In this document: in pieces, positions 18,544-42,270 of the stretch
How the letters are laid out: each line of letters opens with the position of its first letter
Position numbering within the stretch: the stretch's first letter is position 1
Assembly (NCBI GenBank): GCA_903813345.2
Contig: CAIIXF020000001.1
Coordinates: forward strand, 21,638,001 to 21,702,000
From: Owenia fusiformis
Lineage: Eukaryota
Reading direction: 5' to 3'
Length of the DNA: 64,000 nt
Program-made: the position numbers and the translations under genes
Notes under the pieces: model-generated
The model's input: only the letters and a program-made list of their open reading frames with translations
Told to the model about the DNA's origin: nothing
Database searches by the model: none

Positions 18544-20754
18544 ATGATATATACAAATGATTCTGGTTGCAGCTACAGTGCCTCATTACCCAGGGAGGCC
18601 TATGTCAATGATCCAGAAGGTCTGGAACAAGCCTTAAATGACAGGAAAGCACATGGGAAAGATCACTACACACTTGCCAGAGGGCTACAACTTGTAGCAG
18701 AAAAAGGTAAATAAAAATAATATGTGTCATTTACAGATGCAGTGGTCTGGACCTCAAGTTCTCTGTTTCTTAATTCTTATCTTACCAAAAAGGAAGAAAC
18801 AAAGAGTAGATGATGTCTTCAGCCATGCGTTTGGAGGATGAATATGTGTCAATCATACTCAATCAGAGTATAAAGCTATTAATAAATAGTCAATAAACGT
18901 TTCTGCCCCATTAGATAGTCTGACATAAGTTCAAATGTGGAAAAGATAAGTATTATTTTTTCGAAAGATTGTCCTTATTTTTTAAAAAAATAGGCCTCAT
19001 TTTAAGAAAAATAAATAGGTCTAGTCTTCCAAAATAATGTATTTGTCCTCCTCATTGCTTTCTACCCCTTTAAATGATAGATTTTTCAATAACATAAGTT
19101 TGTTTGTCTTGTAGGGTATTTAGAGTGTGTCCTTGTGTTCCTCAGGGCAGGTGCTCTGCCCGATGCTCATGACAGGAGTGGACAAACACCACTGATTCTA
19201 GGTAACAGCTAAGATATGATGAACAATTAACTTATCCTTCTTACATATACCATGACCTTTGGCTGCTTATTCCAAAATGCCAAATGTCAATAGCATCCAC
19301 TGAGCTGAGAAATATAATCAGATAATGCAAGAAAGTATTCTTGTTACAAAGTATAGACAACATTCAAAAATAAAAAATGTGCTTAACAGAGCTATAACAT
19401 CCAAGAAAAAACATACAATGTGTATAAACTTAAAACAAAGTGGTCACTCAGCTTTCCTTAATCATTTCATGAAACTAATATGTGTTCTCCTCTTCCAGCA
19501 TCCATGCAAGGCTATGCTGATATTGTGGAGATCCTAATTCGCAAGGGATGTAATGTCAATAAAATGTGCCACAGAACACGCGCCACTGCCCTACATTGGG
19601 CATCTGCAAATGGCCACCTGGAGTGTGCTGAGCTCCTATTGGATGCTGGAGCCAACCGAGAAGCCAAAACAACCAATGGGAGAACACCTCTTATGATGGC
19701 ATCACGTAATGACCATGATCTAATCCTAGAAATGCTTATAAAAAACAACTGTGATGTCAATGTGTTAGATGTTGAATCTAACTCTGCTCTGCACCTTGCT
19801 GCCATTGATGGTGCCTATGATACTACCAATCTATTGATTAAACATGGATGTAAAGTTGACCAGCCTAATCATTACGGAGATACCCCATTTTTGTTGGCAG
19901 CTAGAGGCGGGCATATTCAGGTGGTAAAGCGTCTGCTCCGTGCAGGATGTGACATTAACAGACGTGGAAGGTATACCTTGAATGCCTTACATTGGGCGTG
20001 TGACAAAGGAGCCACAGAGGTAGCTAGCCTACTCCTTAGTAACATGATTTCCCCGAACTGTGAAACCAAGGATGAAATCTATAGTGGAGACATAGCCATG
20101 GAACGTGGAATGACACCTACAATGTTAGCCTGTCAAAAAGGACACCATAAAATCTTAAAGCTTTTGATTGAAGTTAATGCTAATATACACACCTGTCAGA
20201 ATGGACACTTTTCTGCATTACATTTTGCTTGTAAACATGGTCATACGGAATGTGTGCGTATACTCCTAAACAAGGGAGTCATACCTGAACCCCTTGGAGC
20301 AAGATATGATTCAAACCCTGGGATTATAATATATGAACCAACACCTTTGTTTATTGCTGTAAAGTATAACCATCCTGAGGTGCTGGGGTTGATCCTCCAA
20401 ACAGGGGTCAATCCTGATATCTACTGCTATCACGACAGAACAGGCAAAGCCATGAGTGCATTATATCTAGCCTCCTCACAGGGTCGTGTGAATGCAATCC
20501 TGAAGCTCGTAAAAGCAGGTGCTGATATCACAGTTCTCTTAAAAGACTCCTCGATATCAAGTAGTTTGTTACAGGATGCGGAATTCACTTCGTGGCTAGA
20601 AGAATGGAGGCACAGTCCTATGTCATTGAAGTTTCAGAGTAGAGTTCAAATTCGAAGAACTCTGGGGTATTTTCCCAACAATAAAATTGAAATGTTTCCA
20701 CTTCCAGACTCTATGAAGAAGTATCTACAATTGGCGGAACTCACAGAAGATTAG
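18544..20754 (+). CDS. Ankyrin repeat and SOCS box protein (ASB-like, putative Elongin BC/Cullin E3 substrate receptor), nested antisense in an OSBPL1A-like intron
   Basis: Exons 18544-18706 (G|gtaaat), 19115-19201 (gtag|GG...G|gtaaca) and 19499-20754 (ccag|CA) splice in frame to 1506 nt, about 501 aa. Many ANK repeats (ATALHWASANGH, GRTPLMMASRNDH, GDTPFLLAARGGH, GMTPTMLACQKGH) and a C-terminal SOCS box (SPMSLKFQSRVQIRRTLG...IEMFPLPDSMKKYLQL). AATAAA near 20802 and 21075. Confidence 0.9.
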
Positions 20755-33673: not shown

Positions 33674-36600
33674 CTAAGTCTTTCCAAGGTTTTCTTCCAA
33701 TATGCCATTAGTCTGTGGGCTACTTGGAATTGGTGGGCTTTGGTGTTTATGCCGCACGTTGAACACTTCAGTGATTGCTTTGCGGAAACAGTGGAAATTG
33801 TAGTCTATAAGACCTGGAATCATAAAATAGGTTGATTTAGATAGGAGACAAAAAATTGGAGAAATTCTATCTTGGAAGGAGGTAACATTAGCCAAGTGGA
33901 ACAGTGGAAGGGTCTCTTAAACATGTGTGATTATGCAATGCATATAAAACATCACTCCCACTGACCAAAACAAATAAAGAATTGAGATTATTGAAAGTAG
34001 TCTGCTGTATATGACAAATGGTTGATCCCAAAATATTTCGCATCTATTGTATCAGCGACTTTATATCTTGCACATTGCCAACCCCTGTTGCATCCCATTT
34101 GATTCAGATGTACAAGATTCAGTGTTCAATTGGTAAGATTATCTTATACTAGCACTTTCTTAGCTCACTGTCTCCGTATTCATAAGGTTTCATTTTTTAA
34201 TTCCTCATCCTCTTTTTCATCCAAATCTATCTTCAGATAATACAATGCAGTATTTATTACCTTGTCTTTCAAAGCTATCCTCTCTCATTATACAGACAAT
34301 TGCTAAGAATTTGTTCACTTCCCGTAAATAAAGTATGGTTGCATTGTTCATTTTTATAATAGAAGATGATTGCTGGTCGAATGCACTGTTGTCTGTGTCC
34401 TCACTGCCACTGGAAAAAACATTTGAATGAGTTATTTTAGTCATTAACAATATGGCCCAAAACTTAGATAATATAGCCAGAAATATGTAAAAAAAAATCT
34501 ACTAAAATCAGGACACCACTGTTGTTGACGATTTTAATAAAACACGTTTTGTGATGTCACAACATTATAAACTCATATCATTAAGAATCCTTCATTTAAC
34601 CATAAACTAGAAAAAACAGAGTATCAAATCCCAATGTACTAAACATATTTTATTATCAAATCACTTGTCACTATGAATATTTCATGAGAGAAATAAACAG
34701 GCAATTCTGTTGTCTTCGTAAGGAAAAATCTACAACGATAATGGGAAATGACACCAAATCAGGAATTCTTTCTTCACTAGAGGTGCTACGCCCATATAAG
34801 GCAATGCAAACATCTGATTTTACTAACATCGTCATGTAATATTGAATTGTAGCAAATATAGCAATGGTTTTGTTATGAGGCTAACCAAAGACCTCCATCA
34901 ATAAATGGTCATTATGAAAATTAATCCATCAAGATCTTAACTTTTTGGGCTCTAGAAATAAAATATTTGTCCATGATAAAGATATTTTCCCCCTTAAACG
35001 TCACAATTCAGAAAAATAAGATTTCATTACATAAGCCAAATTTCCCTTACTTCAGCAGATTATCTACTCGACCTGTATAGTAATTGGTACAATAAAGGAT
35101 GCTCTAATCTTACCCATATATACAAGACACATCTATGACTACATCTATCATGTCACAGCAAAGCTCATATGACTGCATGTCAACTGGTGATGAATCTGTG
35201 GCAATGTAGATTTTACTGACGACATCAAACAGAAACGCTTTTTCTATACCAGAATTCTGGAATGAGAAAATATGTGTTTTGTTCTTTGGGGTGAATTGAA
35301 AATCCATTTGCCTTTGTGGTAATTTTTTAATCTCAACTTGTTGCATCTCCCTTTATGTATTTTAGTACACATGTATTAACATTTAACTAAGACATGTACA
35401 ATGAACATACTCGTACAGAATTACATCCAACTCTGGTATCAATATCATGTATTCATTTATTGAAAACTCGATCTGGATTGCATCAACAATTTCAACCTCT
35501 ATTGAATATACACATTCAATTTGTTAAACAAAATCAGTCAATATTTCTTAAAGTATATTCAGTTAATGCTCACATAATGATGACTGGGCTTATTATTTTG
35601 TGTGTTGAAATCTTAATTTCACAAAATATAATACTTACTGAAATAAATATGTTGAGTAGGTTTTCTAAGATGGGTAACTGTGGTATGAGTTTCTGTACTA
35701 CTTTACTGAACGCCTCAAATATTGAGTGGTCATATATACTAGTGAGGTAAAAACTGGAACAAAAAATTGTTTCAATAAATTCCAAAATGACATGTGATTT
35801 TATAATTCATAGAATTAACATCAAAAATATATTTGAAGAAATTGTCCAAATGGGCAATTAAATGAAGATATATTTTGATTAACTTATTTTGTTCAAGGAT
35901 CAAAAAAACATTTATTGAGTTCCTAAACCATACGTACTGTTTTGACTTTGGTTAATATTATACTGTTGATAACTTTTGAGTGAAACAATGTTGGTCTTAC
36001 CTAAGGTGAATTGATTCTAAACCTGCATCTGCTAAGTCATCATTGGCACGCTGGTAAATGTCTCTTTGTGTCTCAATTTTGTGGTCATCTGATAATCCAT
36101 CTACTTTATGGATAAAAACCTGGAAATGTATAAAGTTTATGGTATATCTATACACATCATCAAAACTATTATATAATCTGATATAAATTATTGGAAAAGA
36201 ATAATTGAAAAATATAGAAACTGACTACATTGGCTTAACTGTATTTCTTTACTGACTCTTTAGATGTCATAGCATGGAATATAAGTCTATACAAAAATAA
36301 ATCTATTGAACTACACCAAGCTACACTTGACTACACTAAGCTATCATTCTGCATGTATATGAATTAGGAAGAAAAGTTTATATTTATGCAATAAACCTAC
36401 TTCAAATTTTATGTTTGGGTTGACTTTGTGTGCTCTGGATACAGTAGTGTGTAACCTTGCAAGAGCTTCCATATAGTCATCCTGTAAAAAGAACAGTGCA
36501 CAACTGTTATGTATCTGCTGGTGCAGCATTATAAGTCACAGGTATAAAAGCACTACTTGGAGAGGTAAAATGTGCTCAAATATTGTTCTTCAGAAAAGGA

Positions 36601-39600
36601 ATACTTTTCATGTTCCAGAAAAATTGCCATGTCATTACTAAATGACAATTTCTGCTCTTTTCTAGCAAAAAATCACAGTTCATACTATTACTTTTAAAGA
36701 CAGTATGATAAAAAATGTCCAAAATGTAATTTTAACCCTCCAAGTACTACTTTCAAGGAATTAGAATGGATAGAGAGTAGAATATTGGAAGCAATCTTTC
36801 CAAAATTCGAGCCAGTATTTCCTCAAAAAAAAAGAATTACCAAATATAGAAGTTATTGTTGACAATAAGATGCAGAAATGTCTAAATTCATTAAAATTTC
36901 TTTTTTCTATTTTTGAGATTATCCTGAGATAAAGTCAGAACTCTTGGAAAATAACCGAGACATGGAAAGTGAATGCAAAATATATACATTTCTTTTATTA
37001 TCTAAAGATCTTTGTAATTCATCAACCTAATTAACATCCTATTTGACATCCATCAACCTAATTAACGAATTATAAGCTCCAGTTTTCCACATTACTAACA
37101 TTTCAGAATATTCCCCCTCCTCTATACTAGATTGAGACAAGTCACAGGTTTTATTTCAAGTCAAATATCTCTTGTTGCAATCATCTTGATGCAATCATTT
37201 AAGGCTGGCTGATTCCCTGTATCAATTTACCAGCCAATGTTTAATCCGCAAATATTTTCCATAGTAGGATCCCATATTCAAAGCTGTTTGGAGATTCTTA
37301 CTTGATTCTAGCTAACTACATGTAGTGTGATTTGAAAATGATTAAAAAAACATAAAGCATATTTCTAAATTTGAAGCTTCTCTTAAAATTAAAATGTACT
37401 TTTTAAAATTAAATAGTATCAAAGCAGTATATGTGTATATGATGGACATCTGAAAAAGTGTTCATGCCAAAGACATATGGGAATTGGCAACATGCAAATT
37501 GGTTGGTGAAAACCAACAAAGTATGAGGTACATACAAGCCTTATAATAAGAAGCTTCCAACACATAACTGTGAACATGATGAAACAGGTACAGTGGCTGG
37601 AAAAGCATGTTGATGAGGTGATCAGAATATGACAAGTACTAGGCAAAAGAAAATACTAAACCTGATATTGAAAGCACTAAAATGTCATTTGTTGAGCAAA
37701 ATATTATCAGTACTTTGTTTAAAATGCAGATTTTTTCTCAAGTTATACCATCTTTTGCCAAGTATACTTCTAAGTAAAGGGGCTTGGTATTAATTCATTT
37801 GTATATATCTGAGAATCAATGTTGTTAAGCACCATTCAAATGCTTACGTGAGGCCTGCATTACTGAAGATCGAGACCTGAGACATGAAGTACTGTCCCAG
37901 CCAATGAGTTTTTGAGAGTACCTCGCCCAGGAAGTGGGGACTTTTGAAATGCATATTCCTGATAGTAGAAAGGATGAGTCTGGGAATGAGTCTGGGTATC
38001 GACTTAGAAAATATTGAAAATTGTAATGTCTGAAAAACCAACTCAATTACACATATTATTAAACTTCAATATCTTATTCTACTTCTGAGATTACAAAAAT
38101 ATTAATTTGTATCACAATTGATGAAGAATATTGGCATCAAAGACAGTGCATATCACTTTGTCAGAATTGAAAAAAAAAATCAATGGCAAATATTAAATGA
38201 ATTAATTATGCAAAAAGTTTGAAACTTATCTTCCAAAACATTGGTTACTTTCTTTGTATAGACATTGAATGGTATTTCTGGAAAAGTGAATTGGTGTTTA
38301 TCTTGGTAATCAAGGGATTATAGTCACTCAAAGTTACTGAGCATCCAGTTTTGAGACTTCAATTGTGTTGGTGAAGTTACACATATTCCAGTCAAATTCA
38401 TGCTGAGCACAACATTCTGGTTTCAATTTTATAATCTCTATACGTGACCCTGGTGATGAAGAGTCAGAATCAATCAAAAAACCTAAACCGGAAAACTGTG
38501 CTCATTGTGAAAACTAAAAATGAAGCAACTTTTTTTCTGATATTTCTCATATCAAATGGCAACCATCTTGTTTTTCCCCCTTCAAATTAAACTGGCGGGA
38601 AATTCAAAAATTTGAAAAATTTTTAATCCTTAAATATATTTTTCAAAAATATGATTTTCTCTTTAATTCTTCATGGGTCTTAAGTTATTTCTTCTTTGTA
38701 TGTCATACATGTTGCCATTGGTGTTTTTTCTATGATAATGACTATTTTTTTGTTTGTTAAGATACTTATTCTGACTCTCAGTAGGGGGTTAATTATGCAT
38801 CAAAACTTGTGAAAAAGTAAATATACTTATCAAATATAACTAGGTCAGTAATAAAAACCATATTTCACATACATTTGACTGAGGGACCAAAAGGGCATTT
38901 ACCCAGACACATCCTTTTGACTACATTTCACCAGTCTAATTTTTATTTTGACAAAATCCCTACCCTTTCCTGAGTGGCAATCTCACGCAACAAAACCTTT
39001 GATTGGTGCATAGCGATAATAACAAGGCCCTTTAACAGATGGGATGAACATGAGATTTTGATGAATATAGGCAGTCTACAGCTAAAAAGCTGTGTATGTA
39101 TCAAACCTGAGCATCTATAATAAACAGTATACAATGTTGAGCGCCATATAGATAGTCCCAGTCTATATCTGGATTGTCTGTAAAGTTTGGCTGGCCTGGA
39201 ATCTCTTGCAATGTAAACTGCACAAATGAGCCATTATCTATTTCTGCAAAAACAAACAGATGAGATTTAAGAAGTACAAATTTGGTTATACACATACCTG
39301 GGCATCTATAACAAATATTAGGGCTCCACAACCTCCAAATATGGTTTCTGAGTCGAATGTTGGGTCAAAAAAGTCAATCTGTCCTGGGAAATCCCAAATT
39401 TGAAACTGCACAAATGAACTATTCGACACGTCTGAAATAACAGAAAGACATGCATAACATTTCTTCAATCATGAACACTTTAGAAAGAGTTGCTGATAAT
39501 GAAATTGAAACATTACAACATTAGAGAAATGTGTTTGTCTATGATAACGATTGTTGTTTTTATACTTTTGTTTTCCTCATTTTTATGTGTACTATTCAGT

Positions 39601-41003
39601 ACAGATTGAACCATACAATCTATAGATCTAGAAAAAATATTGCAAACAATTAGTGTATTGTACAAAGATCAAATGTATGTAGATCAAATCTAAAAAAGAC
39701 TGATGACTCATACAGATTTCAAATATAGATGGCTGCATCATTACATTCTAAAACTTCTACAAACTCAGTTAATCATTTCCTAGACAGTTATTCTTGCAAA
39801 ATGAATTCCACTTACCATCTTTGACTATTTTGTTTGTGCTTTCTAAAAATAATGTTTCATTTGGTGACATTTTGTGGAAGACAACTTTTTGTATTGATGA
39901 TTTGCCACTCCTGAAAAAGTCAAATGATATATATGAGAAAGCTGGAACAGTGAAACCTGAACATCTCTGTAATCCAAACTCCTCTCCATTATGAAAACCT
40001 TTTCTCGGTCCTAATTTCAAACCTCCCATTCACTCCCATGTTAAAAAAAACTTGAATGTGAACACCTACTAATCCTTACACTTTTAGTCAGTTCCAGTAC
40101 GATTCAGATTAGACTGATCACATTTCAACAACAGGGGAAATAACCTCACACCGTACCTGCAGTTGTACCGTCCTTTAGGCTAACTTCATGTGATTATGAT
40201 TTGCTAGATTGAATTCCTCTGGGACCAGCCAAAAGTCAAATTAACCGGTGTTCACATTTCAAGTTTTTTTCAACATGTAGGTCAATGAGACCTAACAAAG
40301 TGGGACCGAAAAATATGTTCACACTGAGAGGTGTTCCGACAGAGGTGTCTGGATATACAGCGTCACCGTGTTGTAGTCTTTGACTCAATAGGCAAATAAC
40401 CATCAAACTTTAACAGCAAAATCACATTGAATGAACTTAATGATTCTGAAATTTTAAGACAAAATATGCAAGATTGACCACATTAATGAACTTTTCTTTG
40501 GTTATGTTTTTTGGACATGTCTTATCTCCTCCTTTCCATTCCAACCTTCTATTATGGATTTTCATTCTTTCAAACAATCTTGTTGTATTTTACTCACTTA
40601 ATGTTGAATCAGGGGTACCTCATATTGAAATAGAATTAATCAGATAAAAAGAAAAAATGATTCTGTCTAAATATGAAGAAACCAAAAAAATGAATATAAA
40701 GGGACAAGGATGAAGTGGCGATGATTACTCTTAGCTAAATGAAAGAGCAGCCCTTTCCCATAATAGGTGACTATTCCCATTTAGTGTAGGTTCAGGATGT
40801 ATGAGGAATGAGGATGGGACGACTGGTCGACATATGTGACAAAGCTCATACCTTCGTAATCCCATTAAGAGAATCCTTGGCTTTGAGTCTAATGCGGTTA
40901 CAATTGTGTCATGGTCTGGGTCATCTGCTCCATACCCATAATCCTTAGGGAATGAACCAACTACATAGCTACCCGTCGTGAATCCTCCGTCTCCTTCATA
41001 AGA
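33674..41003 (-). CDS. RRAGC: Ras-related GTP-binding protein RagC/RagD (Gtr2 family); start-codon exon not located
   Basis: Exons 41003-40852, 39910-39816, 39431-39298, 36481-36401, 36119-36001, 35753-35639, 35256-35114, 34409-34261, 33813-33674 (TAG): 1128 nt in frame. Motifs: [68 protein letters not shown], and roadblock-domain [26 protein letters not shown]. Probably a single co-orthologue of RRAGC and RRAGD. Confidence 0.96.
39107..39243 (-). CDS. Alternative (tandem-duplicated, putatively mutually exclusive) RagC/D exon covering the interswitch, G3 and switch II region
   Basis: Acceptor tgtttgtttttgcag|AA and donor CAG|gtttga; 137 nt, phase 1 to phase 0 like the canonical 134-nt exon 39431-39298. 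Open peptide (E)[45 protein letters not shown] aligns end to end with the canonical exon. Confidence 0.75.
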
Positions 41004-42270
41004 CTGCAATGAACAATCATGAAAATATATTCCATAACTGTAATAGATAACAAAACATTAACCTGCAAAATGTCACCACCTGCCATTTGTTACAGAAGCC
41101 TAACACCAACCACTGAACACCAACTGCTGAATCCCAAACACCATCCATAAGACCGTGGAGATCATAATAATATGACTTGTGTTGGGGACAATAACCAAGC
41201 TTGCCTTTTTATTCTCACATTGTAAACAAAACACCCAAACATGTATTAAGTTATTCATTGATATAATCATAATATCCAAGGGAAGACTTAATTTATTTCA
41301 AGGAAGGAAGGTTACTTGATTGACAAGATGATCAAAAAGTCAATATTAAACTAGACTCCAAATTAATTTGGAAGTTTGTTCAAAAACCAGCCTCCTGACC
41401 AATCTAAGATTACTGCTTCTGTTTTCGGTAAAAGAAGTATCTGTACATTCATGGACTTAAAACTTTTAAGTTAAAAGGTATGAAATCTTCAAACCTTAGA
41501 ATCAATCTGAAATCCCTGCCCAAATTCAAATAATTTATCATAGATGGTCAAGGTCCAAGATTAACAAGATATCATCTTATTCAGTAATCCAGTAAGTCAA
41601 GTTATGCCAATTCTTTAAATATTCATTTTTTCTTGTGATAGAACATAGATCTTATGATACCAGACAGTATGACTGAAAATCTGGTGGGGAATATGTGCTC
41701 TTTATTAGGAATAGACTTTATGACTGATTAGAAGGTCAAACCTGAAATAATATACTGAAATCTAATCATAGAAAAATACATCAACTCGTGCATTTATTTA
41801 TTGCCATGATTTGCGATTTTTATGTTTTTGCTATCTGAACCAAATTTTTCCAAACCTCTATCCAAAACAAACAAAATTATATATGTAATATTGTATGATA
41901 GAAGAGACAGGGATATGGGATGATGAAAATATGGGAAGTTGCATCCACTACCCTTCTCTTGAAAGCCTATGTAAATCCTTATGATTTTGTTTCAATACAT
42001 ACAATAGTTCTCTTGAAATCCCATGGACTAATGGAATAATCTGGGAGTGACCTTCGTTGAATCTGGGAGTGACCTTCGGCGAACTGGAGTCTCTAGCCAA
42101 TTCTAGCCACTGGGATGATTTTACTTGTAAAGCAGGCCACAAGAACCCACGAAATAAGAAATAAGGCTCAGACTAGGTTTAACTACTAGGTTTATCTACT
42201 TTAAATGGGCTTGTCACCATTTGCAGATTATTAAAGTAGTTGTACAGCTTGTTGAACTACATGTAGCCTT

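Follow-up and report, generated by a model that had tools for sequence, protein, structure and literature searches.

A diverged tandem copy of the switch II exon in the RagC/D gene of Owenia fusiformis, a candidate mutually exclusive exon

Does the RagC/D gene of the annelid Owenia fusiformis carry two versions of the exon that codes for the G3 motif and switch II, and is the second version spliced as an alternative to the first? Rag GTPases gate mTORC1 according to amino acids, and it depends on the nucleotide state of RagC/D whether mTORC1 and TFEB-type substrates are recruited. In mammals, Rag diversity comes from the paralogues RagC and RagD and from splice forms of RagB. The question arose in a stretch of 64,000 nucleotides (nt) of contig CAIIXF020000001.1 (positions 21,638,001 to 21,702,000 of the forward strand, here called the window), where a sequence-only reading had pointed to a pair of adjacent exons, here called 3A and 3B, in a RagC/D gene on the minus strand. 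Judged by its sequence, 3B arose as a tandem copy of exon 3. We regard it as a credible but unproven mutually exclusive exon (MXE) and put the probability that it is truly used as an alternative to 3A at about 0.5.

The gene in the window is the single annotated RagC/D gene of the species. Its annotated protein (P0012, 377 amino acid residues) matched the window exon for exon and contains exon 3A. With a brute-force search for GT-AG joins, residues 3-377 of P0012 were reproduced by one chain of 9 exons, and the protein was 69-83% identical to 35 RagC/D proteins. When exon 3A was used as the query, 963 of the 967 candidate proteins were found at E <= 0.001, and among the matches listed they were of the RagC/D kind throughout. 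The acceptor ttgcag (41004-41009, minus strand) stands directly before the exon that starts at 41003. The first two codons of P0012 (Met-Ala) must therefore sit in a further upstream exon, outside the mapped chain. The gene and its parts were mapped as follows.

33674-41003, minus strand: mapped part of the RagC/D gene body, a GT-AG exon chain translating to P0012 residues 3-377
41003-40852, 39910-39816, 39431-39298, 36481-36401, 36119-36001, 35753-35639, 35256-35114, 34409-34261 and 33813-33674 (stop), minus strand: the exons of this chain
39816-39910, minus strand: exon 2 of the P0012 exon chain, coding for 31 residues and the first base of the next codon; ends in ATG before the donor gtaagt
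39298-39431, minus strand: exon 3A, the canonical exon of 134 nt (P0012 residues 85-129), with strand beta3, G3 (WDFPGQ), switch II together with its helix, and strand beta4; ends in CAG before the donor gtatgt
39244-39297, minus strand: spacer of 54 nt between 3A and 3B, holding the 3A donor, the 3B polypyrimidine tract and the 3B acceptor
39107-39243, minus strand: exon 3B, the diverged duplicate of 137 nt and 46 residues; acceptor tttgcag, ends in CAG before the weak donor gtttga
36482-39106, minus strand: intron of 2625 nt from 3B to exon 4 by the exon-chain coordinates, lying within the intron of 2816 nt that is removed in the 3A form
36401-36481, minus strand: exon 4, coding for 27 residues, with an acceptor common to 3A and 3B

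The positions that the sequence-only reading had given for 3A and 3B, their distance of 54 nt, their common phase and their AG and GT ends all held on the minus strand. Exon 3A comes after ttatttcag, with a pyrimidine tract and the AG, and before gtatgt; exon 3B comes after GTTTGTTTTTGCAG, which also ends in AG, and before GTTTGA. Both exons run from phase 1 to phase 0, the two opening bases completing the codon of exon 2 and the last base falling on a codon boundary. Prefixed with the final G of exon 2 (39816), both were free of stops and coded for 45 and 46 residues, respectively. The exact alignment agreed with the earlier estimate of about 19 of 46 shared residues, one whole-codon insertion and no stop or frameshift: 19/46 aligned residues (41%) and 79 of the 137 nucleotides are identical (42% diverged), and the sole indel is one additional codon in 3B, in frame.

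Exon 3B was the only second match for any exon of P0012 in the window (tblastn, E 1.2e-7). Searched alone against the sequences of the PDB, it was best matched by residues 104-147 of human RagC (E 2e-4 to 5e-4), and the Pfam family PF04670 (Gtr1_RagA) scored 47.1 bits with 3A and 18.9 bits with 3B (E 0.0011). The similarity of the two exons is not a matter of chance. Their flanking introns showed no clear homology, with 13 of 20 bases identical upstream, where both have pyrimidine tracts, and 9 of 20 downstream. Twelve public runs, which belong to 3 studies and share one organism label, contain the 31-mers of 3B in their contigs, so 3B is not a one-off assembly artefact; none of the 12 is recorded as an RNA run.

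The splicing geometry was then examined by translating the possible joins. The lengths of 3A and 3B (134 and 137 nt) are both 2 modulo 3, and exon 2 joined to either of them and on to exon 4 stays in frame. When 3A and 3B were joined to each other, the product read ...IDAQK and then a stop, two codons past the junction; when both were skipped, it read ...KDG and then a stop. The claim that including or skipping both exons would shift the frame was thus borne out, and since either way an immediate stop is reached, a full protein results only from the inclusion of a single one of the two. The intron between 3A and 3B measures 54 nt, whereas all other introns of the gene have at least 247 nt. With this length, no branch point of 3B can be as much as 50 nt away from the 3A donor; the most branch-point-like site seen by eye, CTCAT, sits about 37 nt past that donor and 17 nt before the 3B acceptor. 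In a survey of human MXEs, a donor-to-branch-point distance of <50 bp was the criterion for steric exclusion (Hatje et al. 2017, PMC5740500). The spacing of 3A and 3B falls within this limit, which is taken from human and may not hold for the annelid spliceosome.

In the reading that we prefer, 3B has been kept as protein-coding sequence and is most likely spliced in place of 3A, with the two mutually exclusive and 3B a minor or regulated form. The donor of exon 2 can join either acceptor, and either exon 3 donor can join exon 4 in frame. Joint inclusion would be further hindered by the 54-nt intron, with its branch point so close to the 3A donor. The 3B acceptor is good and has a long pyrimidine tract. 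Exon 3A is probably the default, as it has a strong donor, in contrast to the weak GTTTGA of 3B. Use of 3B would need the repression of 3A or the activation of 3B, a weaker and regulated choice.

A TGCATG hexamer is found at 39449-39454 on the minus strand, 18-23 nt upstream of the 3A acceptor. TGCATG is an Rbfox-type motif; in such a place it represses the exon downstream, and here it might be a repressor site for the default exon. It is a lead only. The hexamer was not enriched in the window, where it occurs 33 times on both strands against 41.6 expected from shuffles, and 2 copies lie on the minus strand within the gene. A possible RNA pairing was also considered between 36454-36471 in exon 4 and 39197-39214 in exon 3B, 18 nt with 89% complementarity. 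It was dropped, as the duplex energy did not surpass that of shuffles (P 0.052) and several intron windows showed stronger pairing.

The sequence-only reading had also called 3B an old duplicate kept under selection. Among the 45 aligned codons of 3A and 3B, 16, 12, 8 and 9 have 0, 1, 2 and 3 base differences, respectively. This distribution was compared with a neutral simulation in which 3A accepted silent changes only and 3B decayed neutrally toward the base composition of introns, at 8 divergences with 3000 runs each. At every divergence, 0 of the 3000 runs combined 16 or more untouched codons with 9 or more triple-changed ones; 3B does not resemble a relic in uniform decay. Where the divergence matched the 55 differences (d 0.45-0.6), 12% to 9% of the neutral runs kept an open frame. 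Of the columns without variation among 36 RagC/D proteins, 3B retains 15 of 26, versus 4 of the 19 variable columns (Fisher P 0.0175), and 15 of 19 hydrophobic positions stay hydrophobic. In codons with at least two base changes, the replacements were more conservative than in random codons matched for the number of base changes (P 0.049); a comparison with fully random codons (P < 5e-5) was rejected as overstated.

The silent sites gave a more complex picture. The same codon is used in both exons for 16 of the 19 conserved residues, against 9.3 expected from the codon usage of the gene (P 9e-4), and third positions differ in 3/19 conserved versus 19/26 changed codons (P 2e-4). The changed codons differ at about two of their three bases. 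Such a pattern fits neither a simply old duplicate, in which saturated silent sites would be expected, nor a simply young one, in which the changed codons would not be expected to come near to random. Possible explanations are conversion patches from 3A, a nucleotide-level constraint in alternative exons or an adaptive burst. Six conserved codons of 3B are isolated between heavily changed codons, which argues against conversion alone. Of the earlier claim, selection is partly supported, in its favour being the codon-difference pattern, the bias to invariant columns and the retained hydrophobic positions, and against it the ratio of nonsynonymous to synonymous divergence (dN/dS) of 0.70; the word 'old' is uncertain, given the 16 of 19 residues with the same codon.

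What would a protein with 3B look like? Exon 3B retains SFVQF, the Pro-Gly-Gln of G3 and F-x-IDAQ. The G3 motif changes from WDFPGQ to QEIPGQ, and the switch II stretch of 18 residues is rewritten as 19. The changes of Trp to Gln, Asp to Glu and Phe to Ile, with the catalytic Gln kept and switch II remodelled, that the sequence-only reading had listed agree with the translation. An AlphaFold2 model of P0012 was poor (mean predicted local distance difference test score, pLDDT, of 58.1, and <50 across much of residues 62-103) and serves as a rough guide only; it suggests strands at 93-97 and 119-127 with a helix at 112-117 between them. The 3B isoform would keep both strands, beta3 and beta4, as well as the Pro-Gly-Gln, and it would be expected to have an altered handling of Mg and GTP and altered switch II contacts. 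By analogy, the most likely consequence would be a weaker GTP binding (GDP-like or pseudo-GTPase) or a different response to the GTPase-activating protein (GAP), shifting mTORC1 recruitment. In cells making this isoform, the response of mTORC1 recruitment to amino acids would change. It is equally possible that the domain is simply broken by changes at so many invariant positions.

The Trp of G3 is the residue hit in RagC W115R, an activating mutant of follicular lymphoma (Gollwitzer et al. 2022, PMC9481461), and lymphoma mutations of RagC are reported to favour the GDP state, which binds Raptor (PMC10521446). These two sources agree with the sequence-only reading, which had named W115 as a lymphoma residue and GDP-loaded RagC as the active form. 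It had also named D116, which was not found as a lymphoma residue in these two papers.

The probability of about 0.5 for a used alternative exon follows from the human base rate, raised by the signs of selection and by the close 54-nt spacing. A number of results weigh against it. The Pfam score of 3B lies below the 22-bit cutoff, which is set for whole proteins, and 22 of the 26 new residues of 3B never occur in the 36 RagC/D proteins. No 3B-like protein was detected in 5.8 billion clustered proteins (80-2000 and 24-79 residues), a weak absence, as fragments derived from Owenia runs seem to be lacking there even for 3A. Against 1.84 billion representatives, 3B gave 7 matches, of which 6 were repetitive and unrelated and 1 was an ordinary RagC/D-like fragment (P0127). 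Further points against its use count at the same time for another reading, which we hold to be possible on lesser odds: 3B may be a relic that is not, or is no longer, spliced, perhaps once functional and with blocks of identity refreshed by gene-conversion patches from 3A. The only annotated protein, P0012, has the 3A form. The 3B donor GTTTGA has a T at +3, where all 8 other donors of the gene have an A. The NG86 pairwise values of dN 0.55 and dS 0.78 give the ratio of 0.70, with no sign of purifying selection. Eleven columns that are invariant in the 36 RagC/D proteins are altered in 3B; these include W97 and D98 (the Asp of DxxG), present in 36/36 of them. At the 9 triple-changed codons the replacements were no better than random (P 0.30). 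The base rate points in the same direction, since among 1722 newly predicted human intronic MXE candidates 654 passed validation with one or more junction reads per criterion and 358 with three, so that most did not pass (PMC5740500). A relic would also be in line with the nearly untouched silent sites of the conserved residues, such as patchy conversion might leave in an old, dead copy, and with the open frame, which persists by chance in about 3-12% of the neutral simulations. Conversion tracts, however, explain the six isolated conserved codons poorly. The retention in 3B is biased to invariant columns and to positions of the hydrophobic core, and nothing disrupts the frame, either splice site or the pyrimidine tract, with the sole indel in frame.

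An improbable alternative is that 3B serves as a poison exon, which is joined to 3A so that the stop two codons on leads to nonsense-mediated decay and tunes the level of RagC/D, with no second protein made. The ...IDAQK product and the good 3B acceptor would suit this role, and reads joining both MXEs were reported for 83 of 377 frame-shifting human clusters (Hatje et al., PMC5740500). A poison exon would need neither an open frame nor Rag-like residues, yet both are present in 3B, and the 54-nt intron would have to be spliced in a gene whose other introns have at least 247 nt, with the donor less than 50 nt from the branch point. That the duplicate is an artefact of the assembly or part of another, overlapping gene is hardly credible: sequence words of 3B occur in 12 runs from 3 studies, a nucleotide divergence of 42% is not expected from a collapsed or duplicated stack of reads, and the plus strand has no open reading frame (ORF) of note there. 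The probability left beyond the mutually exclusive exon, the relic and the poison exon is assigned to other or mixed cases.

Returning to the mutually exclusive exon, we also considered a far-reaching form of it, which we think unlikely. In this scenario the choice of exon would yield a GDP-biased or pseudo-GTPase RagC/D partner of RagA/B, rewritten at the lymphoma Trp. The recruitment of mTORC1 or the choice of TFEB-type substrates would then depend only in part on amino acids and on the FLCN GAP. This might be confined to particular cells or life stages, such as the switch from feeding larva to juvenile, and turned on by the repression of 3A, for example via the TGCATG.

The searches also returned sequences that were inspected and set aside. 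P0127, the ORF of another organism on an 804,807-bp ENA contig, was rejected as 3B-like, since it is an ordinary RagC/D-like fragment that shares PGQPNF by chance. This genomic ORF reads WDVPGQPNFLFDHNFD and has a switch II that is one residue longer, as in 3B, and is otherwise 3A-like. It runs into an intron right after IDAQ; the intron position is therefore common to P0127 and the Owenia gene. Two proteins matched 3A two-fold, P0001 (Heliothis virescens, 616 residues) and P0002 (463 residues). Their blocks are repeated identically and are not alternative exons; they are probably artefacts of assembly or gene models and could mislead automated screens for exon duplication. A metagenome scan with 3B found nothing 3B-like and only one locus, a bacterial-type ORF of 368 residues with a chance match to PNFTDNPD. 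Among the papers listed in literature searches, none was found to describe such an exon pair for Rag genes, and the main text of PMC5740500 has no mention of 'RRAG', although its supplements could include such genes.

About 13 kb from the RagC/D gene, the window has an uninterrupted frame of 430 residues (19462-20754, plus strand) that codes for ankyrin repeats (Pfam Ank, 202 bits) and, at the C-terminus, a SOCS box (Pfam SOCS_box, 34.6 bits). It is an ASB-type gene or a retrocopy.

Taken together, 3B would, if real, be an MXE from tandem duplication in a GTPase gene, a known kind of arrangement that we did not find described for Rag genes. A single RagC/D gene swapping its switch II by splicing would be a second evolutionary route to Rag diversity. 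It would also provide a natural variant at disease-relevant residues, usable to probe the role of switch II. The scope of these statements is one species and one locus.

Among known systems, a close relative may be Rab6A and Rab6A', two isoforms of a small GTPase from a duplicated alternative exon near G3. Those exons differ by only three residues, whereas only 41% of the residues are common to 3A and 3B. The human MXEs that arose by tandem exon duplication (Hatje et al. 2017, PMC5740500) resemble the Owenia pair in being adjacent, homologous exons of near-equal length with the same frame and GT-AG ends, whose joint inclusion shifts the frame and whose donor-to-branch-point distance is <50 nt. 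They differ in that membership there rests on junction reads for each exon and on the absence of reads that join the two, while the 3A/3B pair is known from genomic sequence.

The RagC mutants of lymphoma (W115R, T90N; PMC9481461, PMC10521446) raise mTORC1 signalling and favour a GDP-like state, and the Trp of W115R is the residue that 3B turns to Gln. They are single somatic substitutions in human, whereas 3B alters 26 of 45 aligned residues, adds one and has a Gln instead of the Arg. In RagB-long, a brain-enriched splice isoform of mammals with low GTP affinity that acts as a pseudo-GTPase-like modulator of mTORC1 dynamics (Figlia et al. 2022, PMC9481464), the nucleotide-switch region of a Rag protein is likewise altered by alternative splicing. 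There, a cassette exon inserts 28 residues in switch I of the RagA/B subunit, whereas the putative event in Owenia would swap a whole exon over G3, switch II and two strands of RagC/D.

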